DNA from: an uncultured Ignavibacteriales bacterium
Lineage (GTDB): Bacteria > Bacteroidota > Ignavibacteria > Tepidaquicellales > OLB5
Assembly: GCA_964577645.1 (NCBI GenBank)
Contig: CAZOAP010000002.1
Span: forward strand, 1 to 43,379
Reading direction: 5' to 3'
DNA: 43,379 bases
A program made the position numbers and the translations under genes. The stretch's first letter is position 1; every line of letters starts with the position of its first letter. This document shows positions 10,219 through 29,893 of the stretch, one piece after another. The notes below the pieces were generated by a model that ran no database searches, was not told the DNA's origin, and worked only from the letters and a program-made list of their open reading frames with translations.

Positions 10219-11292
10219 CTATGTATTTTCTTCTGAGAGTTTTTCTGCTCTATCGGCAATTTTAAGCTTTTCGAAGAGCTCTGAAAGATCGCCTTCCATT
10301 ATCTGCGAAAGATTGTACATTGTGAGCCCGATGCGGTGATCGGTCAATCGGTTCTGGGGAAAGTTATATGTGCGTATCTTATCGCTTCTATCTCCTGAGC
10401 CGACCATGAGCTTGCGCTTTTGTGAAACAAGCTGGTTCTGCTTTTCAATTTCAGCCTCAAGCAGCCTTGAGCGCAGCACTTTCATTGCCTTCTGCTTGTT
10501 CTTCAGCTGGGAGCGTTCATCCTGGCACTGCACAACAACACCGGTGGGAATGTGCGTAATACGGATGGCTGTTTCAACTTTGTTAACATTCTGTCCCCCT
10601 GCGCCGCCGGAACGGAATACATCAATTTTCAGATCGTTGGTATTAATTTCAACATCAACTTCATCAGCTTCAGGCAGAACAGCAACTGAGGCGGCAGATG
10701 TGTGAACGCGACCCTGTGTTTCAGTTTCAGGTACGCGCTGTACACGGTGTACGCCGCTTTCATATTTTAATGTACCGTAAATATCTTTACCGGTTACGTT
10801 GAGTATTACTTCTTTTAATCCGCCCGGACCCGAGGATTCATTATACGTAACAATTTCCATTTTCCAGCCGATACGCTCAGCAAAGCGCGAGTACATCCTG
10901 TAAAGATCAGCCGCAAATAATGCGGCTTCATCACCGCCGGTACCTGCGCGAATTTCAAGCATAGCGTTCTTGGAGTCATTGGGATCTTTAGGCACAAGCA
11001 GCTCTTTTATATCTGCTTCTAGCTTATCGAACCTTTGCTGCAGTGATTCCTGTTCAGCCGCAGCAAGCTCCTTCATATCGGCATCATTTGTTTCATACAG
11101 AAGCTTTTTATTCTCTTCAAGCTCATGCTTTACCTTCATGTACTCTTCGTACGCGTTGACAATATCGGTTAAGTCACTGTATTCCTTAGATAGCCTGCGG
11201 AATTCCTTCTGGTCATTGACCGTTTCGGGCTTATTGAGCAGCTCGGCAATTTCGTTGTAGCGCTCTTTTACTTTTTCTAATTTATCGAACAT
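10219..11292 (-). CDS. prfA: peptide chain release factor 1
   Basis: 357 aa. Contains the GGQ motif (FRSGGAGGQNVNKVETAIRITHIPTG), an RF1-type P-x-T tripeptide context (RVQRVPETETQGRVHTSA), and RF1 length and layout. Confidence 0.95.
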   Translation of the reverse strand: MFDKLEKVKERYNEIAELLNKPETVNDQKEFRRLSKEYSDLTDIVNAYEEYMKVKHELEENKKLLYETNDADMKELAAAEQESLQQRFDKLEADIKELLVPKDPNDSKNAMLEIRAGTGGDEAALFAADLYRMYSRFAERIGWKMEIVTYNESSGPGGLKEVILNVTGKDIYGTLKYESGVHRVQRVPETETQGRVHTSAASVAVLPEADEVDVEINTNDLKIDVFRSGGAGGQNVNKVETAIRITHIPTGVVVQCQDERSQLKNKQKAMKVLRSRLLEAEIEKQNQLVSQKRKLMVGSGDRSDKIRTYNFPQNRLTDHRIGLTMYNLSQIMEGDLSELFEKLKIADRAEKLSEENT

Positions 11293-11352
11293 ACTTTTTT
11301 CTTTCTGATTGCAAAAATACCGTTAATTGAAGGGAGATTCAATTCAAATAAC

Positions 11353-11380
11353 AATGAGTAATGAGTAATGAGTAATTAGT
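11353..11380. repeat. heptamer tandem repeat (aatgagt)x3 plus aattagt
   Basis: Read directly: aatgagt aatgagt aatgagt aattagt. The same heptamer phase and motif recur at 28168-28202. Confidence 0.9.
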
Positions 11381-11642
11381 TATTTATCTGCCTTCGGCAG
11401 ATTTCGCTTTACTTCGTAAAGCTTAAAAGATATTCGTGCCACGAAATCAGTTTCTTTGTAATAAAACAGTAATAAGAATAAATAAATTATATTTTAAATT
11501 ATTTTAAGATCTATTCGTGGCACGAGAGGTTAAAATTATTTAGTGAGCTATTTATGGCATGAGTAGATGAAAATTATTTTTTTGTAAAAAAATTTCTGAA
11601 AAAAGTTTTTAAAAAATATTTTCATTTTTTTCTGTTTACCTA

Positions 11643-11672
11643 TTGACTATGAGTGTTAGAATGTTATATTTG
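11643..11672 (+). promoter_or_regulatory. candidate Bacteroidetes-type promoter (-33 TTG / -7 TAnnTTTG) for the ATP-grasp operon
   Basis: TTGact at 11643 is followed by 19 nt and then TATATTTG (11665-11672). This matches the FCB sigma-A consensus as I recall it. It lies about 135 nt upstream of the TTG start at 11808. Confidence 0.35.
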
Positions 11673-11807
11673 CAAAGAGTTTTTGATGGTGAAAACTGTA
11701 CCATAAAAAAATTTTTAAGCGAAGAAAGTTTTTGGAAGTATAGAAAACAGAATTAAAAAATTTTCTCATCAAAATAAAATTAAAAGTAAGGAAGAAGCCA
11801 AAATTTT

Positions 11808-12896
11808 TTGCGGGTAGGATTTACTTACAATATAAAAAAAGAGCACAGCTCAGATGAACAGGTTTCCGGAGGAAAGGGAGCCAAAGTTCAGAATGAAAGT
11901 TATGTTGACGAAAATCTGGTCAACAACTACTCTCACCGCTTAAGCGATGTTTATGCTGAGTGGGATGATGAAGAAACCATCTCCGCAGTTGAATCAGCAA
12001 TAAAAAAAGCGGGACATGAAGTTATCCGCATTGAAGCGGATGAAAATGCATATGAGAAGCTCCGCACAACAAGGCCTGATATTGTTTTCAATATGGCTGA
12101 AGGTTTTGGCGGCGCATCCAGGGAATCACACATTCCCGCAATGCTTGAAATGCTTAACATACCCTATACAGCAAGCGATCCCATAACAATTGGCAATTGC
12201 CACGATAAATCAAGGTGCAAGGAAATATTAACCTATTACGGTGTGCCGAATCCGGGCTTTTTTATAACAGATAGCCATGTAAACGGCCATCCGAAGGTAA
12301 AATATCCCGCATTTGTTAAACCCCTTCACGAAGGCTCATCAAAAGGTATATATAATAGTAGTGTGGTAAATAACCGTGAAGAGCTAAACAGGGAAATAAC
12401 AAGGATTAAGGAAAATTACGATCAACACTCTATAATAGAGGACTTCCTTGACGGGCAGGAGTTCACAGTAGCCTTGCTTGGAAATGGTGAAAATGTGCGT
12501 GTTTTGCCCATAGTTGGCATAAACTTAGATTGTTTGCCGGCGGATTTCCCCAAAATTTACTCATATGAGGTAAAATGGTTCTTTGATACCAGGGAAAACA
12601 AGCTTGATATATTTTCATGCCCCGCAAAGATAAGCGATAAGCTGACCCGCAGAATTGAAGAGATCTGCAAGCAGGCTTATCATGCATTGCGCATTAAGGA
12701 CTGGGCAAGGATGGATGTTAGATGTGACGCGAATAATGAGCCGTATATAATTGAAATTAATCCGCTGCCGGGAATACTGCCCAACCCGGATGATAATTCA
12801 TGCTTCCCCAAAGCTGCAAGGGAAGTTGGCATTGATTATGACGGGCTGATACAGACCGTGCTGAATGGGGCGATAGAGAGATATAATCTTAAGTGA
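11808..12896 (+). CDS. ATP-grasp ligase, D-alanine--D-alanine ligase-like family (paralog 1)
   Basis: 362 aa with a TTG start. The N-terminus MRVGFTYNIK..EWDDEETISAVESAIKKAGHEVIRI is typical of the Ddl-like 'MxIGxTYD' ATP-grasp family. The C-terminal ARMDVRCD..PYIIEINPLPG is the ATP-grasp Mg/ATP-binding block. Confidence 0.85.
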   Translation: MRVGFTYNIKKEHSSDEQVSGGKGAKVQNESYVDENLVNNYSHRLSDVYAEWDDEETISAVESAIKKAGHEVIRIEADENAYEKLRTTRPDIVFNMAEGFGGASRESHIPAMLEMLNIPYTASDPITIGNCHDKSRCKEILTYYGVPNPGFFITDSHVNGHPKVKYPAFVKPLHEGSSKGIYNSSVVNNREELNREITRIKENYDQHSIIEDFLDGQEFTVALLGNGENVRVLPIVGINLDCLPADFPKIYSYEVKWFFDTRENKLDIFSCPAKISDKLTRRIEEICKQAYHALRIKDWARMDVRCDANNEPYIIEINPLPGILPNPDDNSCFPKAAREVGIDYDGLIQTVLNGAIERYNLK

Positions 12897-12972
12897 AAAG
12901 GCATCCGTCAGAGCCGGATTTCAATCATGCTTTGCATGATTTCAAAAAGTAAAAAGGCAAAAAGAGATAAAG

Positions 12973-13077
12973 CAGATTACAGATTACAGATTACAGATTA
13001 CAAATAACAAATAACAAATAACAAAGAGCAAATAACAAATAACAAAGAGCAAATAACAAGTAGCAAAGAACATATAA
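12973..13077. repeat. heptamer-phased tandem array, 15 units (cagatta x4, then caaataa/caaagag variants)
   Basis: Read directly: 105 nt = 15 x 7 in unbroken phase, all units of form ca.a..a. It lies in the spacer between the two ATP-grasp genes and ends 59 nt before the 13136 start. Confidence 0.95.
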
Positions 13078-13135
13078 CGAAAAATAGATTAATTAATGAG
13101 ATTGCCGCGCTTCGCTCGCAATCCAGGATAAACGA

Positions 13136-14206
13136 TTGAGTAAAAAACTGAACATATCGATAATATTTAATGACCCGGTGCAGTATGCGCAGGGACCGGT
13201 GTACGAAGGCACGGATGTTGATATTGACGCGCTGCCTGATGCTATTGATATGAGCGAGTACGGTGTGCTTGATGAAGTTAAGAGTGTTGAAAGAGCTTTA
13301 GCTCCGTTAGAGCATAACACAAAGATAATTCCCGTAGCGCTTGATATAAACAAGCTTATAAAAGAGCTTAACGAGAACAGGCCTGATATTATTTTTAATC
13401 TTTGTGAAAGTGTTGACGGCGACCCGACGCAGGAAATGAACATTGCGGGATTATTTGAGCTTTTGAAAATTCCGTACACGGGTTCACGTGCGTTTACACT
13501 TGGGCTTGCATTAAATAAGCCGCTTGTTAAAACAATTCTTAACCAGAACGGGATACCAACGGCAAAACATTTTGTTACTAATACATCGGCTATACATCTC
13601 AACGGGCATAAGTTCCCCATGATAGTAAAGCCATCACGCGAGGATGCAAGCATAGGGATAACCAATGAATCAGTGGTAACAAATGAAGCTGACCTGAGGA
13701 AAAGAATTGAATACGTGCTGGATGAGCATAAACAGCCCGCACTGGTGGAAGAATACATTGAAGGCAGGGAAATAAATGTATCGGTGGTTGGTAACGATGA
13801 GCTCGTAACTTTCCCAATAAGCGAAATTGATTTCACAGGGCTGCCGGCTGACTATCCAAAAATTATCAGCTATAACAGCAAATGGATGTACAAGACGGTT
13901 GAGTTTGAAAACACAAAGGCAGTCTGCCCCGCGCAAAATTTGAGTGATAAAGAAGTACAGGTAATTCAGGATACAGCGAAGAAGGTTTACAAGCTGCTTG
14001 GTGCCGCTGATTACGCAAGGGTTGATATGAGATTAAAGGATGGAGTGCCGTATGTGCTTGAGCTGAACCCGAATCCTGATATTGCAAGCGATGTACCCGA
14101 AGATACAGGCTTTACACGCAGCGCAAAGGCGCACGGGTGGGAATACAGCTATTTGATTCAGCAGATCATTGGTTTTGCACTGAAAAGGTGGGGAGTAAAG
14201 CAGTAA
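13136..14206 (+). CDS. ATP-grasp ligase, D-alanine--D-alanine ligase-like family (paralog 2)
   Basis: 356 aa with a TTG start. The layout matches paralog 1 (..RPDIIFNLCESVDGD..IPYTGS..; ARVDMRLKDGVPYVLELNPNPD). Confidence 0.85.
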   Translation: MSKKLNISIIFNDPVQYAQGPVYEGTDVDIDALPDAIDMSEYGVLDEVKSVERALAPLEHNTKIIPVALDINKLIKELNENRPDIIFNLCESVDGDPTQEMNIAGLFELLKIPYTGSRAFTLGLALNKPLVKTILNQNGIPTAKHFVTNTSAIHLNGHKFPMIVKPSREDASIGITNESVVTNEADLRKRIEYVLDEHKQPALVEEYIEGREINVSVVGNDELVTFPISEIDFTGLPADYPKIISYNSKWMYKTVEFENTKAVCPAQNLSDKEVQVIQDTAKKVYKLLGAADYARVDMRLKDGVPYVLELNPNPDIASDVPEDTGFTRSAKAHGWEYSYLIQQIIGFALKRWGVKQ

Positions 14207-14262
14207 AAGGTTATAAGGTTGTAAAGTTATAAGGTTATAAGGTTATAAGGTTATAAGGTTGT
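14207..14262. repeat. octamer tandem repeat (aaggttat)x7 with variants
   Basis: aaggttat aaggttgt aaagttat aaggttat aaggttat aaggttat aaggttgt. It begins at the first base after the stop codon of the second ATP-grasp gene. Confidence 0.95.
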
Positions 14263-14320
14263 TTCAAAATATAAGTAGCATAGACATTCAGAAGAGCACT
14301 TCGTGACTTGTCTGTGAATA

Positions 14321-14815
14321 ATGAAAATGATACGGAAGTTAATACAGAGCGACAGGGATAAGATACAAAGGATACTTGCTGATACCAAGCATTTTAATGA
14401 TGATGAGATAAAAGTTGCTATGGAGCTGATTGATGTTTACCTGAACGATGCGAAGCAGACTGATTATATTATTTATGTTCATGAAACCGATGATACGCAC
14501 GAAACAGCAGGTTATATTTGCTATGGTAAAAGACCACTGACAGACTGGACATATGACTTATACTGGATAGCTGTTGACCCGAATATTCACGGAAAGGGTT
14601 TAGGCAGCGGGCTTGTAAGGCATATGGAAGAGGACCTGTTAACCAACGGCGGAAAAATTATACTGATAGAGACGAGCGGAAAGCCGGAATACGAAAACGA
14701 ACGGAAGTTCTATTTAAAGAACGGCTATGAAGTTCAGACTGTCATAAAAGATTTTTACAGAAGCGGTGACGACTTATATGTTTACCGCAAATATCTGGAG
14801 AGAAAGCCTCTTTAG
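14321..14815 (+). CDS. GNAT family N-acetyltransferase (single minimal domain)
   Basis: 164 aa. The block WIAVDPNIHGKGLGSGLVRHME is the acetyl-CoA-binding Q/R-x-x-G-x-G/A motif A. The length is typical of a stand-alone GNAT. Confidence 0.85.
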   Translation: MKMIRKLIQSDRDKIQRILADTKHFNDDEIKVAMELIDVYLNDAKQTDYIIYVHETDDTHETAGYICYGKRPLTDWTYDLYWIAVDPNIHGKGLGSGLVRHMEEDLLTNGGKIILIETSGKPEYENERKFYLKNGYEVQTVIKDFYRSGDDLYVYRKYLERKPL

Positions 14816-14916
14816 ATAAGGTAACCGGAAATTATAGTACGGTGCCCTGTGAAACCCGGTGCAATATTAAATATGGCAGCGGGAATCCAAAAAACAAATA
14901 AAGGAGTTAATATTTT

Positions 14917-16050
14917 ATGGAACTATGGCAGCAGCTGCTAAAACAAAGCGTCAGCTCAGTAGATCAGCTTGTCGATCAGTTCGGAATCAAAAGAGAAGTT
15001 GCCGAAAGACTGGATGATTTTTTCCAGGCGAGGATAAACCCGTACTACCTCAGCCTCATCCGCTATCCCGGCGATCCCATTTGGCTGCAGGCAGTACCCG
15101 ATGAAGTGGAGCTTTATGATATTGATGCACCTGAAGACCCGCTTAATGAGGATGAGATGAGCCCGGTTCCTAATATTACTCACCGTTACCCGGATAGAGC
15201 TTTATTTTTAACCACCAGCCAGTGCGGCCTGTACTGCAGGTTCTGCACACGCAAACGCAAGGTGGGTGACTCGAGCAAAATAAATATGCGCGAGCTTGAA
15301 GCCGCATTCAATTACCTGGAAGAGCACACAGAAATTAACGATGTGATACTCTCCGGCGGCGACCCGCTTATGCTGACCGATGCGATGCTTGAAAAAGTAC
15401 TCATAAGGCTGCGCCAGATACCGCATATATCCATAATAAGGCTTGGCACAAAAATGCCGTGCGTACTTCCGCAAAGGATTACGCCGCAATTGTGCGATAT
15501 GCTGAAGAAGTATCACCCGATTTATGTTAATACACACTTCAACCACCCGTGGGAAATTACACCCGAGAGCACAAAGGCATGCGAGATGCTTGTTAACGCC
15601 GGCGTGCCGGTAGGATGCCAGACAGTATTACTTAAAGGAGTGAATGATGACCCTGAAGTTATGAAAGAACTGATGAAAAAACTTTTGGCAATAAGGGTTA
15701 GACCGTATTACATATACCAGGCTGATCTGACCAAAGGCGCAAACCACTTCCGTACACCAATTGATGTAGGTTTGGAAATAATGGATAACCTGCGCGGGCA
15801 TATAAGCGGGCTTGCAGTGCCGCAGTTTGTTATTGATGCGCCGGGCGGCGGCGGAAAGATACCGCTGTTGCCTGATTACGTGCTTGCGCGTGATAAGGAA
15901 AAAATCATACTGCGTAACTTTAAGAACGAGGTTTATGAATACCCCGACGTGCAGGAAGAGCATATTGTGCTTAAGCGCGGAAGGAATATTGATAAGCCGC
16001 CGAAGAAAAAAGCTAAGAAGAAAACAGTACAGCTCCCGGTTCTGCAGTAA
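14917..16050 (+). CDS. kamA: KamA-family radical SAM aminomutase, predicted L-lysine 2,3-aminomutase
   Basis: 377 aa. Contains the radical-SAM cluster motif CGLYCRFCTRK, SGGDPL, YIYQADLTKGANHFRT and the PLP-lysine block VIDAPGGGGKIP. Has a Lys-rich C-terminal tail. Confidence 0.9.
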   Translation: MELWQQLLKQSVSSVDQLVDQFGIKREVAERLDDFFQARINPYYLSLIRYPGDPIWLQAVPDEVELYDIDAPEDPLNEDEMSPVPNITHRYPDRALFLTTSQCGLYCRFCTRKRKVGDSSKINMRELEAAFNYLEEHTEINDVILSGGDPLMLTDAMLEKVLIRLRQIPHISIIRLGTKMPCVLPQRITPQLCDMLKKYHPIYVNTHFNHPWEITPESTKACEMLVNAGVPVGCQTVLLKGVNDDPEVMKELMKKLLAIRVRPYYIYQADLTKGANHFRTPIDVGLEIMDNLRGHISGLAVPQFVIDAPGGGGKIPLLPDYVLARDKEKIILRNFKNEVYEYPDVQEEHIVLKRGRNIDKPPKKKAKKKTVQLPVLQ

Positions 16051-16078
16051 AAAAGGGAAGTTGTTAAAATTAAATCAG

Positions 16079-16105
16079 ATCCCCCGCTTTTAGGGGGATT
16101 TTTTA
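16079..16105 (+). terminator. Rho-independent terminator of the ATP-grasp/GNAT/kamA operon
   Basis: atccccc gctttta gggggat followed by tttttatttt, 29 nt after the kamA stop. Confidence 0.7.
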
Positions 16106-16278
16106 TTTTTAACCTGTTTCCCCGCCGTCGTTGGTCCTTTGACCAACGACATTATGTTCAGGATTTTGACGTTGGTGAGAACACTGCTAAAGCAGTCGCA
16201 GCCAACCTTGGCGTTAAATTGCTGTGCCTGTAAATTATTATAAAATTTTGCTATACTTATAAAAATTAATATAGTTAT

Positions 16279-17673
16279 ATGCACCCTGAAACCAAAAATA
16301 ACAATTTACAATACCCTTCAAAAGAGCCTGAAACTGCAAACACAACAGGCTCCGCACTCAATACACTAAGTTCAGCAATATTTTATCTTGCCATTTTATT
16401 TTTCATTATCGGTTTTAATTTCAGTGATGTTATGGTTGGCAACTGGTACCAGCAGTTCTTTCCGAATATTGGCGGAAGATCTGTAACTGATATAACATTT
16501 TTAGACAGTTTAAACGGTTACGCTGTTGCTACACAAACATCTGATACAAGTTACATTATGAAAACGATAAATGGTGGAGATAACTGGCAAATTGTTTACA
16601 GGAATTTTTTTGCTATGACAAAAATTCAGTTTCTGAATGTTAACACCGGATATGCATGCGGAGGCTATCTTTACAAAACTGTTAATGGTGGTTTAAATTG
16701 GATTCAGGTAAATACACCATCTATAACTGCAGAAGAAATGTATGTATTAAATCAGGATACAATTTGGATAATTTGGAAAGAAAGTTTATTAGGCGGCGTA
16801 TACCGTACCACGAATGGCGGAGCAAACTGGGAGCAGCAACTGAATCTGGGAAGCTCTAATCCAGATCATATTTATATGATTAATGGTAGAAAAGGATTTA
16901 TATCCCAAACCAATAATTATACAAGAATAACAACCAACAGCGGAATGAACTGGACAATACTATTTAATGGAAGTGGACAGGGATTTTATGATATGTACTT
17001 TGCAGATAGCTTAACAGGTTGGGGTAACTTTTTTGAAACGAGGAAAACAACAGACGGGGGTTTTAATTGGTTTTCACAAACAATGCCTTCAGGTGGAAAT
17101 ATTGTTACGTCACCCATCCAAAATCTTGCTGGTTTAAATAAGGATACAATATGGGGTGCCGGTGCCCAAATATTAACTTCTTTAGGAATTAGAGGGATGA
17201 TAAATCGCACTACAGACGGCGGGAATACCTGGTTATTCCAGGTACCAGATTCATCATATAATAATAATATTTATAGGTATCTAGTTTTTTACAACAAATT
17301 AAATGGTTGGGCATATCTGAATTCTCTTAGAGGTATACATACAATAACAGGAGGAGACCCTATATGGCTTACTCCTGTTCAACAGATAAGTACAGAAGTG
17401 CCGAAGGAATATAGGTTATATCAGAATTACCCGAATCCGTTTAACCCGGTAACAAATATCAAATACAGTGTGAAACGTGAAACGTCAGACGTGAAACTGG
17501 TAGTTTTTGATATTACGGGCAAAGAAATAATAATACTTGTAAATCAAAAACAATCAGCAGGTACTTATGAGGTTGATTTTAGCGGAAGTAATTATTCATC
17601 CGGCTTATATTTTTATTCATTAATAATTGACGGAAAATTAACAGATACAAAAAAGATGATCCTTTTAAAATAA
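16279..17673 (+). CDS. BNR/Asp-box beta-propeller protein with T9SS C-terminal sorting domain (paralog A)
   Basis: 464 aa. Carries repeated S/T-x-D/N-G-G-x-x-W boxes (TINGGDNW, TVNGGLNW, TTNGGANW, TTDGGFNW, TTDGGNTW). The C-terminal YQNYPNPFNPVTNIKYSV...GKEI...SGLYFYSL..KKMILLK is typical of T9SS CTDs. There is an N-terminal hydrophobic anchor (LSSAIFYLAILFFIIGFNF). Confidence 0.8.
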   Translation: MHPETKNNNLQYPSKEPETANTTGSALNTLSSAIFYLAILFFIIGFNFSDVMVGNWYQQFFPNIGGRSVTDITFLDSLNGYAVATQTSDTSYIMKTINGGDNWQIVYRNFFAMTKIQFLNVNTGYACGGYLYKTVNGGLNWIQVNTPSITAEEMYVLNQDTIWIIWKESLLGGVYRTTNGGANWEQQLNLGSSNPDHIYMINGRKGFISQTNNYTRITTNSGMNWTILFNGSGQGFYDMYFADSLTGWGNFFETRKTTDGGFNWFSQTMPSGGNIVTSPIQNLAGLNKDTIWGAGAQILTSLGIRGMINRTTDGGNTWLFQVPDSSYNNNIYRYLVFYNKLNGWAYLNSLRGIHTITGGDPIWLTPVQQISTEVPKEYRLYQNYPNPFNPVTNIKYSVKRETSDVKLVVFDITGKEIIILVNQKQSAGTYEVDFSGSNYSSGLYFYSLIIDGKLTDTKKMILLK

Positions 17674-17700: not shown

Positions 17701-18633
17701 ATGAGAACAAAACTTACAATATCAGTTATTTTACTTGTGATTTTAACACTCGCATTTATATATAATGCTCAGCGTAATGATACTACATACATGGTAGAAA
17801 ACATAGGTCCAAACGATCATTATACACTAACTGCAGACGAACAGAATAAAAGGCTTGAATATCTTCTTTCAGGTAAAACAGAGAAATATGAGTGTGAACG
17901 TGATTTCATGGTTAATGAAACGGGTTCAGTTATAAAAGATACTTCAGAATTCGGGAAAGGAGCATACGTAATGTGTTGTAACGCAGCTTCTGATAAACCC
18001 GGTTACATAGTAAGGGATGCGAAAAAACAAAAATATGAATACAGCCTGCAAAACAACTGGATGAACGATACAGCTCATAACTGGTATATAAAACCAAGTA
18101 TAAGGATAAACCGGAATTTTATCCTTACAGCTGATCATGAAACCCGTCTTAAAAACTTACAGGCAAAAATATGCAGGTTAGAAGTAGTAAATACAGAGGG
18201 AAAAGTTATCAGAGAGACCGAATACCAGGGAAAACATTTCTGCCAGAAATGCCCCGGTGAGGAATGCAGTTATTTTTACACAGGTAATTATATGGAAGGA
18301 TACGGCTTTTTGTTTGACGATGCACAGGAAAGAAAGAGTTATACAGTAATAAACGGAAAGGAATTAAATCCGGATGCTCTTGCAGATACAAAAAATACGG
18401 GACTGGATTACAGGATATATTGGTACGGAAACACGGATATCTGGGTTGATTACATACTTGTTGAAAACGATGTATCTGCAGAATTGGCAGAAGGTAAGTT
18501 CAGCCACTGGTTTGTAGCAATGAGGGATATAGATCTGACCGGGTTGAGCAAAATTAAAATTAACCCTGACCAATCCTTGTATTACAGAGATCTAATAAAT
18601 AAAGCATGCGGTATTGGGATAACAGCAAAATAA
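17701..18633 (+). CDS. hypothetical exported protein
   Basis: 310 aa with an N-terminal signal/anchor (MRTKLTISVILLVILTLAFIYNAQ). It is sandwiched between the two T9SS paralogs. I recognise no family. Confidence 0.5.
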   Translation: MRTKLTISVILLVILTLAFIYNAQRNDTTYMVENIGPNDHYTLTADEQNKRLEYLLSGKTEKYECERDFMVNETGSVIKDTSEFGKGAYVMCCNAASDKPGYIVRDAKKQKYEYSLQNNWMNDTAHNWYIKPSIRINRNFILTADHETRLKNLQAKICRLEVVNTEGKVIRETEYQGKHFCQKCPGEECSYFYTGNYMEGYGFLFDDAQERKSYTVINGKELNPDALADTKNTGLDYRIYWYGNTDIWVDYILVENDVSAELAEGKFSHWFVAMRDIDLTGLSKIKINPDQSLYYRDLINKACGIGITAK

Positions 18634-18695: not shown

Positions 18696-20090
18696 ATGTA
18701 CCCTAAGGATAAAATAAATACTACCGAAACAAGGCTTAATACACTAAGTTCAGCAATATTTTACCTTGCCATATTATTTTTCATAATAGGTTTTAACTTC
18801 AGTGATGTCATGGTAGGCAACTGGTATCAGCAGTTTATGCCTAATATAGGTGGGAGATTAATTAATGATATTACCTTTACAGATAGTCTGAATGGTTATG
18901 TAGTTACAAATGAAATTTCAGATAGTTCATTTATTTTAAGAACTACTTCTGGGGGTGATAACTGGTTTTTAAGCCATTTTGATACCGGAATTTGTTCTTA
19001 TTATAGTATTCAATTTATAAACCAAAGTACCGGGTTTGTTAGTGGATACATTTATGACGGGAGTACATTCAAAATCGTAAAAACTACAAATGGAGGAATA
19101 AATTGGTATTATATAAATTCAGCATTTGATGTTGTTGCTTTAGATATGCATGTATTGAATCAAGACACAATATGGCTAGTTGATGGAGGTTCTGCAACCG
19201 GCGGCGTATTCCGCACAACAAATGGCGGCACAAGCTGGCAAAACCAATTGAATGTTGGAAGCTTAAATCCCGGAAAGATATATATGTTTGACAGAAATTT
19301 GGGTTTTGTATCAGAAACAACAGGGCAAATATTAAGAAGGACATCAAACAGCGGAGTGAACTGGACAACTTTGCCTACTGCAGGAGCTTTTACGGACATG
19401 TATTTTATAAATAGTTTAACAGGATGGAAAACGGGCGCTCCAGGTGGACCAGGGTTAAGGAAAACTACTGATGGCGGTTTGAATTGGTTTGACCTGCCCT
19501 TACCAGGCGGAGGTAATATTTTCGCTCCTCAGATTGAAAAAATAAGTGTATTGAATAAAGATACCATATGGGGAGTTGGTGCTCAAATACTCACTGGTAG
19601 TGGAATTAGAGGAATGATCAACAGATCAACAGACGGAGGAATAACATGGTTATTTCAGGTTCCGGACTCAAGTTATAATAATAATAAATATTATTTTATA
19701 AATTTTTATAATAAACAAAATGGTTGGGCTTATTTAAATTTTAGCAGAGGTATTCATACTACAACTGGCGGAGACCCTATTTGGTTAACTCCATTAACCC
19801 AGATCAGCAGCGAAGTACCTGTTTACTATAATTTGTTTAATAATTTTCCTAACCCTTTTAATCCAAATACAAAGATTAAATACAGCGTGAAACGTCAAAC
19901 GTCAAACGTGAAACTGGTAGTTTTTGATATTACGGGCAAAGAAATAATAAATCTTGTAGATGATGCACAAACAGCAGGCACATATAAAGTTGACTGGAAT
20001 GCGGCAGGATACTCCAGCGGTATATATTTTTACTCTCTTATAATTAATAGTTCAGTAATTGATACAAAGAAGATGGTGCTGCTTAAATAG
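18696..20090 (+). CDS. BNR/Asp-box beta-propeller protein with T9SS C-terminal sorting domain (paralog B)
   Basis: 464 aa, the same length and layout as 16279..17673. The N-terminal anchor (LNTLSSAIFYLAILFFIIGFNFSDVMVGNWYQQF) and the C-terminal domain are near-identical, and a 43-nt stretch (gtgaaactggtagtttttgatattacgggcaaagaaataataa) is identical. Confidence 0.8.
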   Translation: MYPKDKINTTETRLNTLSSAIFYLAILFFIIGFNFSDVMVGNWYQQFMPNIGGRLINDITFTDSLNGYVVTNEISDSSFILRTTSGGDNWFLSHFDTGICSYYSIQFINQSTGFVSGYIYDGSTFKIVKTTNGGINWYYINSAFDVVALDMHVLNQDTIWLVDGGSATGGVFRTTNGGTSWQNQLNVGSLNPGKIYMFDRNLGFVSETTGQILRRTSNSGVNWTTLPTAGAFTDMYFINSLTGWKTGAPGGPGLRKTTDGGLNWFDLPLPGGGNIFAPQIEKISVLNKDTIWGVGAQILTGSGIRGMINRSTDGGITWLFQVPDSSYNNNKYYFINFYNKQNGWAYLNFSRGIHTTTGGDPIWLTPLTQISSEVPVYYNLFNNFPNPFNPNTKIKYSVKRQTSNVKLVVFDITGKEIINLVDDAQTAGTYKVDWNAAGYSSGIYFYSLIINSSVIDTKKMVLLK

Positions 20091-20244: not shown

Positions 20245-21705
20245 TTATTTGCTCAATTCGGCAGCTTTATCAAGCAGCCACCCGCGTGAAAGTACGCTTT
20301 CATCTTCATTCAGGTCCTTTACAAGCTTATGATGCCTGAAATCATCATAATTCAGCCTGGTATTCAGCAGCTCGGTGTAATATTTAATGAAAGTAAGATG
20401 CAGCTTTTTTACACCCTCTGATATATTCATCCCGCCGGAAAGCAGGTGTTTTGTGGCATCAATTACCGATATTGCAGTTTCAAAATACCCAAGCTCATAA
20501 TAGGTCTTCATCAGTATATTCTTTACATCTATCTTGAAAATCTCATGGTCATAATTCACCTTCATAATATACTCCAGTGTTTTCGAAAAATCGGAAATTT
20601 CAAATGATAATATGCCAAGCGAGATATTTTCAATGGAATCCTTGTTATCAGCCCTGACATACTGCAGGTACTTTGCTATGAACTCCCGTATCCACTCAAA
20701 TTCCTTCACTTCAATAGCTATGTATAGTATGTTCCGGTATGTAACAAGGTTCATGAATTTATTATGAAATGAAAGCAGGTTGCCGTGCTCCAGAGAAAAT
20801 TTATAGAGGCTGAAGAGCTCCTTATAGCTTTCATTATCTTTTTTGTGGATAATTCTCGAAAGCCCGAAATTTAACAGCGCCGTAATTACCCTCGAGGCGT
20901 AGGCATGGTCATACCTTGTGATATTTTCATAAAGCTGCTGTTTTAGTTCATTGTACGCATCAAAATCATTCAGGTCAGAGTTAAGCCTGATAAAGAGGTA
21001 TGATTCCCTTAATGAAAAGCTGTCATTATTTTTCTGCAGGCCTGTATCAGATGAAAATCCCTCTAGATCAAAATACCTGAAAAAAATATCGAAGGCAGAG
21101 CTGCCCCCTTCCTTTTTATACGAGGATAACACCTGGCTTTTGAGCTTATATATATCAGCAAATGAATGCATGAATTGGTATAAGGTATAGTCGCCGTAAT
21201 CACCCAGCTTCTCCGAGGCTTCGCGGAACATGTTATTATTTACAAAGTAATTGTATTTGATCCTGTTCAGCGCGGCTTTATCCTTCAGGTGGTCGCTGTA
21301 TATCTTTTTTTCATTTATCGTTTCTTCCAGCTCTCCAAGCCTTGTTTCAATGGATGCACCTGAGCCGTATTGATTGATATTATCAAGTACTGTGATCTTC
21401 TTTAATGCTTTATCCTTACGTATGGTATTAATAAAAATAAATTCTTCCGTTAACTGAATAAGGTTTGAAATAAGCTTTCTCAAGAGGTCATCGCTGTAAG
21501 CCCTGCTGCCGTATACCGCACGGAATAAATTTTCACGGGAGTAATTCTTTTTATCAAATGAAGGGTAATATTTTTTTATCTCATCAAACAGAAGTGCAGT
21601 TGCATCGCTGGTATTAAAATACGGCGAGCTGACAAATTTAGAAAACTCCCTGATCTCTTCCTTAGAGAAATTTTTGAGGATCCTGGTTATGGATGAATTT
21701 TGCAT
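20245..21705 (-). CDS. hypothetical helical protein
   Basis: 486-aa uninterrupted ORF that is helix-rich (TPR-like feel in the C-terminal half) and has no signal peptide. I recognise no motif. Confidence 0.55.
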   Translation of the reverse strand: MQNSSITRILKNFSKEEIREFSKFVSSPYFNTSDATALLFDEIKKYYPSFDKKNYSRENLFRAVYGSRAYSDDLLRKLISNLIQLTEEFIFINTIRKDKALKKITVLDNINQYGSGASIETRLGELEETINEKKIYSDHLKDKAALNRIKYNYFVNNNMFREASEKLGDYGDYTLYQFMHSFADIYKLKSQVLSSYKKEGGSSAFDIFFRYFDLEGFSSDTGLQKNNDSFSLRESYLFIRLNSDLNDFDAYNELKQQLYENITRYDHAYASRVITALLNFGLSRIIHKKDNESYKELFSLYKFSLEHGNLLSFHNKFMNLVTYRNILYIAIEVKEFEWIREFIAKYLQYVRADNKDSIENISLGILSFEISDFSKTLEYIMKVNYDHEIFKIDVKNILMKTYYELGYFETAISVIDATKHLLSGGMNISEGVKKLHLTFIKYYTELLNTRLNYDDFRHHKLVKDLNEDESVLSRGWLLDKAAELSK

Positions 21706-24478: not shown

Positions 24479-27400
24479 ATGAAGATAGACAGACTGTTTG
24501 CAGGTGAAACGAACAACCCGTATGATAAAATTGAATTCGATAAACGTACTTCAGTAATCAGGAACCCGGATGGTTCTATCGTTTTTGAGATGATAGATAT
24601 AGTGGTTCCGAAACAGTGGTCACAGGTTGCAACCGATATCATTGCACAAAAATATTTCCGCAAGGCAGGCATACCGCGTATAATGAAACGCGTACACGAA
24701 GAAGGTGTACCAATCTGGCTGCAGGCATCTGCACCCGATGAAGAAGCTATGAAGGATATTCCGGAATCAGACAGAAGTACATCTGAGACCGATTGCCGCC
24801 AGGTTTTTAACCGTTTAGCCGGCTGCTGGACCTACTGGGGCTGGAAATACGGCTATTTTAACACAGAAGAGGACGCTTTGGCGTTCTATAATGAGCATTG
24901 TTATATGCTTGCCATGCAGATGGCGGCACCTAACTCACCGCAGTGGTTCAATACAGGTTTGAACTGGGCATATGGAATATCGGGTCCATCACAGGGTCAC
25001 TATTATGTTGACGGCAAAACGGGCGAGCTTACCAAATCAGAGGATGCTTACACACATCCGCAGCCGCATGCATGTTTTATCCAGTCAGTCAGCGATGACC
25101 TGGTGAACGAAGGCGGCATTATGGATCTTTGGGTAAGGGAAGCGAGATTATTTAAATACGGCTCAGGCACAGGATCAAACTTTTCAAATTTAAGAGGCTC
25201 CAATGAACCATTAAGCGGAGGCGGAAAGTCTTCAGGGCTGATGTCATTTTTGAAAATAGGTGACAGGTCTGCCGGTGCAATAAAATCAGGCGGCACAACA
25301 AGGCGCGCTGCAAAAATGGTAACGCTTGATCTTGACCATCCCGATATTGAAGAGTATATCAACTGGAAAGTTGTTGAAGAGCAGAAAGTTGCTGATCTTG
25401 TAACAGGCTCTAAGCTGCTTAACATGCACCTGAACAATGTAATAAAAGCATGTTATGAAGTTCACCCTGAAAACGACCCGTTCGATAAAAAACAGAACAA
25501 ACATTTGGCAAAGGCAATAAGTGATGCAAGGAAATCACTTATTCCCGAAAATTATATTGAAAGAGTTATCCAGCTTGCAAAGCTTGGGGTAAAGGAAGTA
25601 CACATTCCAACTTACGATACTGACTGGAACAGCGAAGCATATTTAACGGTATCAGGGCAGAACAGCAATAATAGTGTAAGAGCCACCAACGAGTTCATGA
25701 AAGCCGTTGAAAATGACGGAATGTGGGATCTTTACTGGAGAGTTGAGCTTAATAAAGCTAAAAAAGAAGGCAGAGAGCCCGTTGCATGCAAAAAGCTTAA
25801 AGCACGTGACCTTTGGGAGCAGATAGCTTTCAGCGCATGGGCATGCGCAGATCCAGGGATGCAGTATCACACCACTATTAATGAGTGGCATACCTGTCCG
25901 GCCGGCGGCGAAATAAAAGCCTCTAACCCGTGCAGCGAATATATGTTCCTGGATGATACAGCATGTAACCTGGCATCTTTGAACCTGGTTAAATTTTACG
26001 ATATTAAAAAAGCTGAGTTTGATATAGCTGCATACCGCCACGCTGTAAGATTGTGGACAATAGTGCTTGAAATAAGTGTTTTAATGGCACAGTTCCCCAG
26101 CAAAGAAATTGCAAAGCTTTCATACGATTACAGGACACTTGGCTTAGGATACGCGAACCTTGGCTCACTGCTTATGATACAGGGCATTCCGTATGATTCA
26201 CCCGAAGCGCTTGCAATAACCGGTGCGCTTACATCAATTCTGCATATGCGTTCATATGCAACATCAGCAGAGATGGCAAAAGAGCTTGGCACATTCCCGC
26301 GCTTCAAGGAAAACGAGCAGAACATGCTTCGTGTTATCAGGAACCACCGCAGGGCTGCATACAACGTGCCTAACGAAGAGTACGAAGGGTTATCAATAGT
26401 ACCTGTAGGTATCAACAAGAAACACTGCCCCGCACCACTGTTGATGGCTGCAAGGGAAGATTCAGATATGGCACTGGATCTTGGTGAGCGTTACGGCTAC
26501 CGCAACGCGCAGGTAACTGTAATTGCACCAACCGGAACAATTGGTTTGGTAATGGATTGTGATACAACAGGTGTTGAGCCTGATTTTGCGCTGGTAAAGT
26601 TCAAAAAGCTGGCAGGCGGCGGATATTTTAAGATAATCAATGAATCGGTTCCCCCCGCACTTAAGAAGCTTGGCTACACAGAGAACGAAATTCACGATAT
26701 AATTAAATACTGCACAGGCCACGGCTCTATTATTGGGTGCCCGGGAATTAATCCCAACGCGCTGGCAGAAAAAGGATTTACCGCAGATGTGCTTGCACAG
26801 GTTGAAAAATCTTTGCCTGCAGCATTTGATATAAATTTTGTGTTCAATAAATACACATTAGGGGCAGATTTCTGCAAGGATACATTAGGATTCACAGATG
26901 AGCAGCTTGATGACTATAATTTTAATATTTTAAGGACACTTGGCTTTACCAAGGAAGAAATTGAAACTGCGAATGATTACGTTTGCGGCACAATGACAGT
27001 AGAAGGCGCTCCGCATTTACGTGAAGAGCATTACGCGGTGTTTGACTGTGCAAATAAATGCGGTAAAAAAGGCACACGGTATATTTCTGCCGATGCGCAT
27101 ATAAAGATAATGGCTGCAGCACAGCCTTTTATCAGCGGCGCAATCAGCAAGACTATCAATTTACCCAATGATGCAACAATTGAAGATATGAAGCATGCTT
27201 ACCTGCTTTCATGGAAGCTTGGCATAAAAGCCAATGCATTATACCGTGATGGCAGCAAGCTTTCACAGCCGCTTAATTCAGTCAGCGATGAAGATACATT
27301 TGAGCATGAATCAGAGGAAATTGCCGATACTTTGAGCAAACCCAATGATATTATCAGGATTGCAGAGCGTATCATTCACAGGTACATTGCTAAGCGCAGG

Positions 27401-28162
27401 AAGCTGCCGTTCAGAAGAAGGGGATATACACAGAAGGCAAAAATAGGCGCACACTCGGTTTATTTAAGAACAGGCGAGTACGAGAACGGTCAGTTAGGCG
27501 AGATATTCATCGATATGCACCGCGAAGGCGCAGCATTCAGAAGCTTAATGAACTGTTTTGCTATTGCAGTTTCACTTGGCCTGCAGCACGGCGTGCCGCT
27601 GGAAGAATTTGTTGACGCGTTTGTATATACAAGGTTTGAACCCAACGGAATTGTTATAGGCAACCCGAACATTAAAATGACAACATCGCTCATAGATTAT
27701 ATCTTCCGTGAGCTTGCAGTAACATACTTAAGCCGTAACGATCTCTCGCACATTTCCCAGGAAACTGAGATGAGAACGAGCCCGATAGACAGCATAAGCA
27801 AGCTTGATACAGAGACAGATTACGAGGATGAGGAGATATTTTCAGAGCGTTTTATTGATGAGCCGGCAAATATTAATACACCCAAGGTAGACCAGATTCA
27901 GGGCACACAGCCAACAAAGCCTGTGCAGAATGTATCGGTCAGCCCGCAGCAGACAATATCAGGGGGACCGCTTGGCATACAGATGACAGGTGCTGCCACA
28001 ATTAAGAATGTGAGCTTGAGCGAAGAGACAGATAAGATTAAGCAGGCAAAGCAAAAAGGATATACAGGCGATATCTGCCAGAGTTGCGGCAGCTTAACAA
28101 TGGTGCGCAACGGCACGTGTTTGAAATGCATAACGTGCGGCGATACATCAGGCTGCAGCTAG
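24479..28162 (+). CDS. nrdJ: class II (adenosylcobalamin-dependent) ribonucleotide reductase, long form
   Basis: 1227 aa. Contains the active-site block [22 protein letters not shown], then [25 protein letters not shown]. The C-terminal region [31 protein letters not shown] is TSCPD-like. The terminal zinc ribbon is CQSCGS...CLKCITCG. Confidence 0.95.
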
Positions 28163-28321: not shown

Positions 28322-29893
28322 ATGTACAAATTTCTTCAAATATTAATTCTTACAACATTTTTTCCTCTTATATTTTATGCTCAAAGCCTTCAAATTAAAC
28401 ATGTTTACAAAATACCAGAAGAGAGTTTTACCCAATATGATCCCGAAAGTTTTTTAATAGATTCGTTGGGCAATTACTGCTATGAAGTAAAAATTGATTC
28501 TTTCTGCTACTATTTCACAAATTCGGGGTTGGTCGGGAAATCAGATTTTATTGGTGGTATAAAAGGTAATGGTAAAAACTCTATAAGTTACACTGATAAG
28601 GATGGATTTCTGGATAAGGAAGAGTTATTCTGGTACAGAAATAATTATTCTACTATGGTTTACGGACCTGAGTATGGCAATCTTGAAGAATCAATAACCT
28701 CTTCGAACGGCAATGGTATTGCAATAATAATTTCCAGAAATGACAGTTTATTTTATATAATAAATGGAGTTTTATTATATTCAGTAAATAAATCGTCTGG
28801 GAATCTACCTGCTGATGATTGGTGTGTTTTCAATAAAAATGGTGATTATTTATTGAGAGTATGGTTAGAGGGTTTGGATCTACTATACCTAAATGGAACA
28901 ATCATTGATTCTGCTATGGGAATTAACGATCTTGGCATTGATAATTCTGGGAATTACATTTATACTCGTTATGATTCAGGGAGCAATTCGGTAGAAATTA
29001 TTTATAACAAGAAAGTCTTATTTAGTGGAGATCAATATGCAAGAGGAGAAATTCTACAAAGTGGTAAATATTCGTTCCTCACTTATTCTGATAAAAACGA
29101 AGTTATGATTTTTAATGATACGTTTTATTATATTCCCAAATGCCCTAAATTCAGTGATTCTGATTCCAGAATAAAAAAATATACTTCTTTTAGCAGTTTT
29201 ATTAATGTTTGTAATCTTTCTAAAAACAAATATTATCTGAATTATAATAATAAACTTAATCAGGAATTTAATGAGATTTATGACGAAATTTGTGATTCCG
29301 AAGGTAACTATTCATATTTTGGGAAAAGGGATTATTATTTATATACTGTAACAAATGGTATAATTACAGATACAGTTACAAGGTTTGGTCTAAGGGGAAA
29401 GCCAATTTATATTTCACCAAAAGGTAATTATTTAGCTTATTTTGAAAAAGAAGATTCGATTTATATTTTCAATAATAAGGATCTGTTTAAAACGATAAGT
29501 GTAGACAAACAATTTAACACAAAGGAATTGTATTATGCATTTAGGTTTTATGATGAAAGAACTGAACAGCAAAATGATGCAAAGTGTATTACAATTGGAA
29601 ATGAAACTTATATCTTAATTAATGAAAATATGTTTGGTCCTTTTAATAAGTTTAATGAAAGCTGGGGCAAACCTGGATATATCATTAATGGTAAAATAAC
29701 GGAGAATGGTTCTTTTTATTTCTTTCAAATTAGCGGTGAAAGAAAATGTAAATTGTATTTAAATGGCGTTGATTATGGTGAAATAGAAAATGATGAAGTT
29801 TTTGAAAACAGTATTGTTGTAAATGAAAAAGGATTAAAGTTTTATATAATTAATTTAAATAATGTTTACGAAGTGACTACTTATGCAAATTAA
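28322..29893 (+). CDS. hypothetical secreted repeat protein (very AT-rich gene)
   Basis: 523 aa with a signal peptide (..FFPLIFYAQS). Has recurring short G-N/K-Y-x-Y/F beta-strand-like motifs (DSLGNYCYEV, DNSGNYIYTRY, DSEGNYSYFGK, SPKGNYLAYFEK, NKNGDYLLRV). Confidence 0.6.
   Translation: MYKFLQILILTTFFPLIFYAQSLQIKHVYKIPEESFTQYDPESFLIDSLGNYCYEVKIDSFCYYFTNSGLVGKSDFIGGIKGNGKNSISYTDKDGFLDKEELFWYRNNYSTMVYGPEYGNLEESITSSNGNGIAIIISRNDSLFYIINGVLLYSVNKSSGNLPADDWCVFNKNGDYLLRVWLEGLDLLYLNGTIIDSAMGINDLGIDNSGNYIYTRYDSGSNSVEIIYNKKVLFSGDQYARGEILQSGKYSFLTYSDKNEVMIFNDTFYYIPKCPKFSDSDSRIKKYTSFSSFINVCNLSKNKYYLNYNNKLNQEFNEIYDEICDSEGNYSYFGKRDYYLYTVTNGIITDTVTRFGLRGKPIYISPKGNYLAYFEKEDSIYIFNNKDLFKTISVDKQFNTKELYYAFRFYDERTEQQNDAKCITIGNETYILINENMFGPFNKFNESWGKPGYIINGKITENGSFYFFQISGERKCKLYLNGVDYGEIENDEVFENSIVVNEKGLKFYIINLNNVYEVTTYAN

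Follow-up and report, generated by a model that had tools for sequence, protein, structure and literature searches.

A conserved cassette of a lysine 2,3-aminomutase, two Ddl-like ATP-grasp ligases and a GNAT acyltransferase as a candidate pathway to acylated beta-lysine peptides

The four genes considered here lie in a 43,379-nucleotide stretch of DNA from an uncultured Ignavibacteriales bacterium close to 'Chlorobi bacterium OLB5' (contig CAZOAP010000002.1, positions 1 to 43,379), which was analysed as a whole and is called the window throughout, and they encode two ATP-grasp ligases, a small GNAT acyltransferase, and a KamA-family aminomutase. A sequence-only reading of this DNA had described four same-strand open reading frames (ORFs) as a candidate operon for an undescribed acylated beta-lysine peptide or solute, and all four were verified on the forward strand at the positions that it gave, with TTG start codons for both ligases. 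The enzyme families are all familiar, their combination is new, and the product is presumably new as well; a search of the full-text literature returned no description of this cassette, an earlier mention elsewhere being possible. The genes are the following:

11808 to 12896, + strand: ATP-grasp ligase 1, 362 amino acids, Ddl-like (Pfam Dala_Dala_lig_C, 2.6e-37)
13136 to 14206, + strand: ATP-grasp ligase 2, 356 amino acids, Ddl-like with a remodelled nucleophile site (Pfam Dala_Dala_lig_C, 6.6e-32)
14321 to 14815, + strand: small GNAT acyltransferase, 164 amino acids, of a distinct 2R7H-like subfamily (Pfam Acetyltransf_7, Acetyltransf_1)
14917 to 16050, + strand: KamA-family radical S-adenosylmethionine (SAM)/pyridoxal phosphate (PLP) lysine 2,3-aminomutase, 377 amino acids (NCBIfam scores, PDB 2A5H match)

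The four enzymes

The product of the last gene had been recognised as a KamA-family enzyme, and the motifs named for it, CGLYCRFCTRK, YQADL and IDAPGGGGK, are all present in a protein that passes the KamA family model TIGR00238 (313.1 bits versus a cut-off of 199.2). Alignment to the Clostridium subterminale lysine 2,3-aminomutase (PDB 2A5H, E=2e-119) equates the first motif, which holds the CxxxCxxC cluster, with C125/C129/C132/R134, the second with D293, and the third with D330/K337, and in an alignment of 84 cassette-related aminomutases all of these residues, including the PLP lysine K337, are kept in 84/84, while the zinc-site cysteine C268 is absent from every one of them; the window enzyme has no zinc-site cysteines, and its C-terminal tail is rich in lysine. 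In the C. subterminale enzyme we take R134 to bind the alpha-carboxylate and D293 and D330 to contact the epsilon-ammonium group of lysine, and in glutamate 2,3-aminomutase D293 and D330 are presumably replaced by Lys and Asn, whereas both Asp residues are retained here. The lysine-type pocket that had been claimed for the window enzyme is an invariant trait of the 84 homologues aligned. None of the more specific models was reached: the AblA equivalog TIGR03820 is the best of them (457.8 bits versus 525.4), followed by glutamate 2,3-aminomutase TIGR04368 (422.3 versus 650), the arginine aminomutase model (347.8 versus 600) and EpmB TIGR03821 (234.5 versus 369.3), and so membership in the EpmB clade, which had been named beforehand as an outcome fatal to the proposal, is not what we find. 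AblA is likewise the best model for the cassette aminomutases of four other lineages (447-497 bits versus 525.4), and the proteobacterial enzymes described below keep both D293 and D330 and score just below the AblA cut-off. Judged by these scores, the aminomutase is best placed as an AblA-like sister clade in the KamA family, and its residues make a functional lysine-type 2,3-aminomutase that produces beta-lysine a well-supported prediction.

The third gene encodes a GNAT protein by superfamily score (Acetyltransf_7, 42.3 bits versus 27; Acetyltransf_1, 40.6 versus 20.7) that is not AblB, as had been argued: the AblB model TIGR03827 gives 18.2 bits versus 205.1 with only 35 residues matched, AblB being a protein of about 270 amino acids with an extra N-terminal domain, as opposed to 164 amino acids here. 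RimI is the best curated GNAT match, though below threshold (35.8 bits versus 86.4). The sole solved relative is PDB 2R7H from Desulfovibrio G20 (E=2.5e-32 over residues 5-157, about 40% identity), a structural-genomics protein deposited as 'putative D-alanine N-acetyltransferase of GNAT family', a name that is annotation only; the one paper found that cites it deals with a Salmonella toxin acetylating tRNA. At least 95% conservation in 81 sequences defines a subfamily signature of G64, Y65, C67, G69, D79, Y81, W82, I83, G93 and G95, where the last two belong to the acyl-CoA-binding xxGxG motif, together with E117, T118, S119, Y124, F130, Y131, F145 and Y146. GNAT homologues of 30-34% identity in plasmid records lie in unrelated contexts and were set aside as uninformative.

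The two ligases, about 35% identical to one another, are automatically annotated as 'D-alanine-D-alanine ligase', and neither reaches any of the curated Ddl or Van cut-offs. On the Ddl models TIGR01205 and PRK01372, with cut-offs of 243-246 bits, ligase 1 scores 179 and 159.8 bits and ligase 2 scores 138.2 and 133.8 bits. The closest solved relative of ligase 1 is the Ddl 8EVY (1.9e-27), and the AlphaFold model of ligase 2 (mean predicted local distance difference test score 78.6) finds structural matches only among Ddl and Van ligases, at about 20% identity. Residues were numbered after E. coli DdlB (reference sequence checked against 2DLN) in alignments of 64 ligase 1 and 67 ligase 2 orthologues. 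K97, K144, E180, E187, K215, R255, D257, E270, N272 and E15 are conserved in both families, and the residues for ATP, magnesium and catalysis (the ATP lysines, the hinge Glu, D257, E270, N272 and R255) are invariant or nearly so, which is the residue pattern of competent ATP-grasp enzymes. The DdlB substrate site (E15, S150, Y216, G276, S281, L282), in contrast, is complete in neither ligase: Trp stands in place of Y216 in either enzyme; ligase 1, with the nucleophile site closer to that of Ddl, keeps S150, G276 and S281 and has Cys for L282, while ligase 2 has Ala for S150, an invariant Asp for G276, Gly for L282, and no conservation of S281. The lid-loop lysine is kept, and compared with Ddl, the lid loop is longer and an N-terminal insertion is present. 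These scores and residues strongly support the view that both ligases are catalytically intact enzymes other than Ddl, so that genuine D-Ala-D-Ala ligase activity, another outcome that had been named as decisive against the proposal, appears to be contradicted by the sub-cut-off scores and the changed substrate positions.

In summary, the cassette proteins pass tests at the superfamily level only and fall short of the AblA, AblB, EpmB, glutamate aminomutase and Ddl models. One member of the cassette, the GNAT 2R7H of Desulfovibrio G20, had already been solved. The ligase 2 family comprises 1,233 clusters at 50% identity (E<=1e-30), with ligase-GNAT and ligase-ligase fusions among them. The cassette is thus not confined to one metagenome bin, given this large family and its many phyla, and from the size and spread of the family it follows that thousands of entries named 'D-alanine-D-alanine ligase' or 'RimI-like' are probably misannotated.

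Linkage of the four genes across phyla

With the aminomutase as query, 80 genome loci (L001-L080) were collected, and 68 of them share one order of the complete set of four genes; another six are truncated at the end of their contig but agree with this order, three have no upstream DNA, and three lack the cassette. The latter three, from Poribacteria and two archaea, carry the most distant aminomutases (55-58% identical), are devoid of the ligases and have unrelated neighbours, and they mark the limit of the cassette clade. Loci with the cassette include Ignavibacteriota, Acidobacteriota, Gemmatimonadota and one unclassified bacterium, and the cassette also occurs in Desulfobacterota and Gammaproteobacteria and, probably, in archaea and in Spirochaetota, where the locus is truncated by the contig end. 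The bacterial phyla with the cassette number at least six, and it is specific neither to Ignavibacteria nor to the FCB group. Within Ignavibacteria, the cassette was found in almost every sampled locus, with a stable position within clades. The flanking genes are of the housekeeping kind: one lineage has kdsB, pyrG, kdsA and kdsD, another has gidB, parA, parB and a bactofilin gene; in Acidobacteria kdsB, kdsA and kdsD adjoin the cassette, and in the window lineage it is divergent from prfA, an adjacency limited to a close clade. An all-against-all comparison of flanking ORFs, made in search of a fifth conserved partner, returned only the four genes as common between phyla.

Further versions of the cassette were found starting from the sequence of 2R7H. 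The order is KamA, ligase, ligase, GNAT in Desulfovibrio mangrovi, Desulfovibrio G20 and one gammaproteobacterium, and the same layout is seen in a Woeseia locus where the second ligase gene is disrupted. The first proteobacterial ligase is consistently closer to ligase 1 of the window and the second to ligase 2, with their own substitutions (Ala or Glu for Y216 and Asp for L282 in the first; Cys for G276 in the second). In Desulfovibrio, a response-regulator-type sigma54 activator (an NtrC-type enhancer-binding protein) precedes the cassette (L083 2857-4293, L084 2874-4310), and a TGGCAT-N5-TTGC element lies just 5' of KamA (L083 4457-4471, L084 4488-4502); the G20 aminomutase gene call is apparently over-extended at its N-terminus across this sigma54 promoter. 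A paper on the sigma54 regulome of Desulfovibrio vulgaris does not mention the cassette. Three proteobacterial lineages carry, with the cassette, a hydrolase of the HDAC family (PF00850; L083 8629-10386, L089 5268-7004, L086 5505-7001) that is 58-61% identical between Desulfovibrio and Gammaproteobacteria, matches no NCBIfam model, and at two of these loci carries a weak GNAT-like domain fused to its N-terminus. In yet another version (L091, L093), ligase 1 and KamA are followed by a ligase 2-GNAT fusion, with the ligase N-terminal and the GNAT C-terminal, that shares 42% identity with each of its two counterparts in the window; the fusion-bearing contig is probably archaeal, with Trm1 and an Elf1-type zinc ribbon nearby. 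A transporter of the MFS type or an amino-acid permease adjoins the cassette in two loci.

Taken together, this linkage through phyla, reordering and fusion strongly supports an obligatory association of the four genes, and a lack of co-conservation in relatives, likewise named beforehand as counting against the proposal, was not encountered. All the computational tests that had been put forward as able to overturn the proposal thus turned out in its favour. The absence of partner genes of the established beta-lysine fates, which had also been stated, holds among the approximately 34 larger window ORFs scanned, where no efp, epmA, kamDE or AblB-type gene was found. Neither an HDAC-type deacetylase nor an S58 peptidase occurs in the window or in L001-L080. 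As a separate observation, one short metagenome contig (L092 670-3823) encodes two ligase 1-like Ddl domains fused in a 675-amino-acid protein, with a Peptidase_S58 gene directly after it; beta-aminopeptidases are among the members of S58 (the DmpA/BapA family), and this arrangement may be a related beta-peptide system, with no aminomutase visible on the contig.

A candidate beta-lysine peptide pathway and its rivals

We consider it moderately probable that the cassette makes an N-acylated beta-lysine di- or tripeptide as a free small molecule. The KamA-type enzyme would first convert free L-lysine into beta-lysine (3,6-diaminohexanoate), and in the second and third steps each ligase would activate a carboxylate as an acyl phosphate and make a single amide bond. 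The nucleophile pocket of ligase 1 is still Ddl-like and suited to a partner with a carboxylate, and for this reason the enzyme probably joins two amino acids; in ligase 2 this pocket has been lost and an invariant Asp gained, which points to a cationic amine as its probable nucleophile, for instance an amino group of beta-lysine. In the fourth step the GNAT would N-acylate a free amine on either the substrate or the product of ligase 2, and the ligase 2-GNAT fusion suggests that acylation comes directly before or after the ligase 2 step. Given the HDAC-type deacetylase of the proteobacterial version, the acetyl group may be transient there, its removal serving either to take off a protecting group or to turn the product over. 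The pathway would be self-contained and its product nitrogen-rich, built with neither the ribosome nor a nonribosomal peptide synthetase (NRPS); its candidate roles are those of a compatible or stress solute, of a metabolite resembling a cofactor, and of a nitrogen-rich protectant. A GNAT combined with an ATP-grasp ligase has precedents in N-acetylated peptides, namely N-acetylglutaminylglutamine amide (Ngg) and N-acetyl-aspartyl-glutamate (NAT8L with RIMKLA/B). Of the proposal from which we started, the classes of aminomutase, ligases and GNAT and their linkage stand; the osmolyte role found no specific support, and the Desulfovibrio cassette is placed behind a sigma54 promoter with its own activator.

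Several points weigh against this pathway as written. The product is predicted from the genes, and the ligase substrates, beta-lysine included, are predicted from a few aligned positions rather than a pocket model; the role of D293 and D330 towards the epsilon-ammonium group and their replacement in glutamate 2,3-aminomutase are taken from the literature. The equivalent of E15, which binds the free amine on the acyl donor, is kept in the ligases, and so the timing of acetylation is constrained; the acyl donor of the GNAT might, moreover, differ from acetyl-coenzyme A. No transporter is part of the cassette. Since the substrate-lining residues differ between the Ignavibacteria-type and the Desulfovibrio-type ligases, their products may differ too, and since ATP-grasp enzymes such as RimK act on proteins, the acceptor could possibly be a macromolecule.

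This last thought leads to an unlikely alternative, in which beta-lysine or a beta-lysyl peptide is put on a protein (for instance a translation factor such as EF-P, or a protein of the ribosome) or on an envelope polymer independently of EpmA, with the GNAT capping the amine. ATP-grasp enzymes that modify proteins are indeed known, namely RimK and the tubulin-tyrosine ligases, RimI is the top curated match of the GNAT even if sub-threshold, prfA is the divergent neighbour in the window lineage and kdsB, kdsA and kdsD lie beside the cassette in Acidobacteria, and EpmA was not found among the window ORFs scanned. Against it speak the EpmB score, far under its cut-off, the neighbours that differ between phyla, with prfA only in the close clade, the lack of any candidate target gene travelling with the cassette, and the closed Ddl architecture with its lid-loop lysine and E15 equivalent, typical of small amino-acid substrates; the probable archaeal occurrence argues, in addition, against a peptidoglycan or lipopolysaccharide target. 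We regard as improbable a form of this idea in which the ligases make no free metabolite but beta-lysylate macromolecules by ATP-grasp chemistry independent of EpmA, and in which the GNAT, together with the deacetylase in lineages that have it, provides a cap that can be removed; if true, it would mean a beta-lysylation system widespread in phyla outside those with known EF-P or ribosome modification. Equally doubtful to us is that the ligases iterate in the manner of cyanophycin synthetase or RimK to yield oligo- or poly-beta-lysine, whose charge or toxicity would be tuned by the GNAT (and the deacetylase). The chemistry would be simple, given that beta-lysine has a carboxylate and a distal amine for head-to-tail ligation, and streptothricins do contain epsilon-linked beta-lysine chains that GNATs detoxify by acetylating the beta-amine; the acidic residue in the nucleophile site of ligase 2 and the deacetylase in the proteobacterial cassette would fit as well. 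However, both ligases are of minimal Ddl size with no primer-binding or extra domain seen, the cassette holds no exporter or immunity gene, and two anciently diverged paralogues suit two steps better than one iterated step.

A secreted beta-lysine dipeptide that acts as an antibiotic in the manner of bacilysin, tabtoxin or dapdiamide, with N-acetylation for self-protection and deacetylation for activation, has likewise little likelihood in our judgement. Stand-alone ATP-grasp L-amino-acid ligases do make dipeptide antibiotics, acetylation followed by deacetylation is a common self-resistance logic, an HDAC-type hydrolase is present in the proteobacterial cassette, and an MFS transporter or amino-acid permease is adjacent in two loci; yet no transporter is consistently linked, and the near-universal presence of the cassette in the sampled Ignavibacteria loci, at a stable position, resembles core physiology rather than patchy secondary metabolism. 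Least probable of all, we think, is plain N-epsilon-acetyl-beta-lysine synthesis of the AblA/AblB type next to Ddl-like genes that are cell-wall ligases or unrelated neighbours. A KamA-type gene beside a GNAT gene is the abl arrangement, AblA is the top model, and the ligases are annotated as if they were Ddl, but the GNAT falls far below the AblB cut-off, the ligases fail every Ddl model and have changed substrate residues, their linkage to KamA and GNAT persists through three gene orders and one fusion, and tandem Ddl paralogues that share a divergent signature in several phyla are unlike a housekeeping ddl.

Among the known systems, AblA/AblB of methanogens and some Chlorobi, and the kamA-yodP pair of B. 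subtilis, likewise place a KamA-type aminomutase gene beside a GNAT gene, and the cassette aminomutase scores best on AblA and keeps the lysine pocket, yet it stays below the cut-off in every lineage tested, and the cassette differs further by a GNAT of another subfamily (164 amino acids) and by two obligatory ATP-grasp ligases. The Ddl and Van ligases share the fold and are the closest relatives of the cassette ligases in sequence and structure; the latter are about 20% identical to them, score below every cut-off, and are encoded as a pair together with KamA and a GNAT. Ngg/AsnO and NAT8L-RIMKLA/B have the same logic of an N-acylated amino acid extended by an ATP-grasp enzyme, with GNAT-ligase fusions in both Ngg and the cassette family; their ligases are, however, RimK-like rather than Ddl-like, neither a beta-amino acid nor a radical-SAM enzyme is involved, and the cassette fusion differs in having the ligase as its N-terminal part. 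EpmB/EpmA also couple a KamA-family enzyme for beta-lysine to ATP-dependent ligation, but EpmA resembles an aminoacyl-tRNA synthetase, whereas the cassette ligases are ATP-grasp enzymes. BacD/YwfE, TabS, RizA and MysD, the last of them Ddl-like, are ATP-grasp enzymes of small-molecule pathways whose substrates are amino acids or amines in free form, and none of them is known to be linked to KamA; the L-amino-acid ligase 3VOT gives a marginal match (3.2e-8 over 120 residues versus 1e-27 for Ddl). The gene cluster of 2R7H itself is a KamA-ligase-ligase-GNAT cluster whose GNAT belongs to the same subfamily as that of the window, with another gene order, a sigma54 activator and promoter, and different residues in the ligase substrate sites. 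By analogy, the cassette would work like a hybrid of the AblA/AblB logic and the GNAT/ATP-grasp logic of N-acetylated peptides. To the fates of beta-lysine already established, which are the osmolyte N-epsilon-acetyl-beta-lysine, the modification of EF-P, lysine fermentation, and NRPS antibiotics, the favoured small-peptide pathway would add an ATP-grasp route independent of the ribosome and of NRPS. Its product and role are directly testable, as culturable Desulfovibrio, including the genetically tractable G20, carry the cassette and one of its components has been crystallised.

Transcription signals, spacers and neighbouring genes

The features outside the coding sequences of the operon are the following:

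11643 to 11672, + strand: promoter, TTGACT (11643-11648), 16-nt spacer with TG, TATATT/TATATTTG (11665-11672)
11788 to 11810, + strand: ribosome-binding site AAGGA (11788-11792) and TTG start (11808-11810) of ligase 1, kept in 11/11 aligned relatives
12897 to 13135, + strand: ligase 1-ligase 2 spacer, 239 nt, mostly 7-nt tandem repeats (Tandem Repeats Finder)
14207 to 14260, + strand: tandem repeat AAGGTTAT, 6.8 copies, right after the ligase 2 stop (Tandem Repeats Finder, 91% matches)
16077 to 16101, + strand: intrinsic terminator, a hairpin of 9 pairs (5 of them G-C) with a loop of 7, then a T-run (terminator scan; tail TTTATTTTTA)

The promoter candidate and the terminator had both been pointed out before, and both were borne out. 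The promoter scan returned TTGACT-N16-TATATT at 11643-11670 with 10 of 12 positions matched and an upstream TG, and TATATTTG was read directly from the sequence at 11665-11672; promoter-like sites in this AT-rich region are not enriched (21 found versus 19.5 expected), and because such matches occur at chance frequency, the upstream region of 11 relatives was aligned. In this alignment, a block of about 45 nt that includes TTGACT...TATATTTG is essentially invariant, GTTTACCTATTGACTATGAGTG(A/T)TAGAATGTTATATTTGCA, while the AT-rich flanking spacer diverges; TAnnTTTG is the -7 motif of Bacteroidota-type promoters. After the fourth gene, the terminator hairpin was found at 16077-16101. The conserved promoter, the terminator and the common strand indicate that the four genes are probably one transcription unit.

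At 239, 114 and 101 nt, the spacers within this operon are uncommonly long, and tandem repeats of 7-8 nt fill two of them, whereas the genes almost abut in many relatives, many Ignavibacteria among them. The ligase 1-ligase 2 spacer, whose length is 8-175 nt among close relatives and falls to 2-20 nt in many others, contains CAGATTA repeated 4.3 times at 12973-13002 and ACAAATA repeated 11 times at 13000-13078. These repeats look like microsatellites that grow and shrink. Upstream of the operon, Tandem Repeats Finder reports a further repeat, AATGAGT in four copies at 11353-11380. The prfA-cassette spacer also holds two copies of a 13-bp palindrome, TTCGTG(C/G)CACGA (11433-11446 and 11514-11527), its sole occurrences in the window, the second of them enclosed by a 37-nt direct repeat at 11496-11579; the palindrome recurs 5' of the cassette in the relatives L001 (three copies) and L009 (one copy), is not seen in more distant relatives, and may be a binding site for a regulator. 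A sigma54 promoter was considered for the window and rejected: the palindromes contain TGGCAC, but they are not sigma54 promoters because the -12 TTGC element is absent. A search of Rfam for riboswitches and leader RNAs came back empty, at E<=1 for 11200-16400 and at gathering score for the window as a whole, and a structured leader RNA was discarded as well, the consensus fold of the 136-nt leader being weak (-4.6 kcal/mol) with essentially no covariation. As for defence systems, PADLOC gave only a marginal radical-SAM match to pVip (19.6 bits, E=1.2e-4).

Downstream of the cassette, the window encodes two paralogous 464-amino-acid proteins (16279-17673 and 18696-20090) with a BNR/YCF48-like domain and a type IX secretion C-terminal sorting domain, whose N-terminal membrane segments are nearly identical and which bracket a 310-amino-acid ORF at 17701-18633 on the + strand; similar paralogues lie 3' of the cassette in several relatives. 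At E<=1e-4, Pfam gave no match for this 310-amino-acid ORF, nor for those at 20245-21705 (- strand, 486 amino acids) and 28322-29893 (+ strand, 523 amino acids). Farther on, at 24479-28162, lies a class II (B12-dependent) ribonucleotide reductase that is unusually long at 1227 amino acids, with its barrel domain matched in two stretches and a C-terminal TSCPD domain, so that an insertion, for example an intein, is possible.

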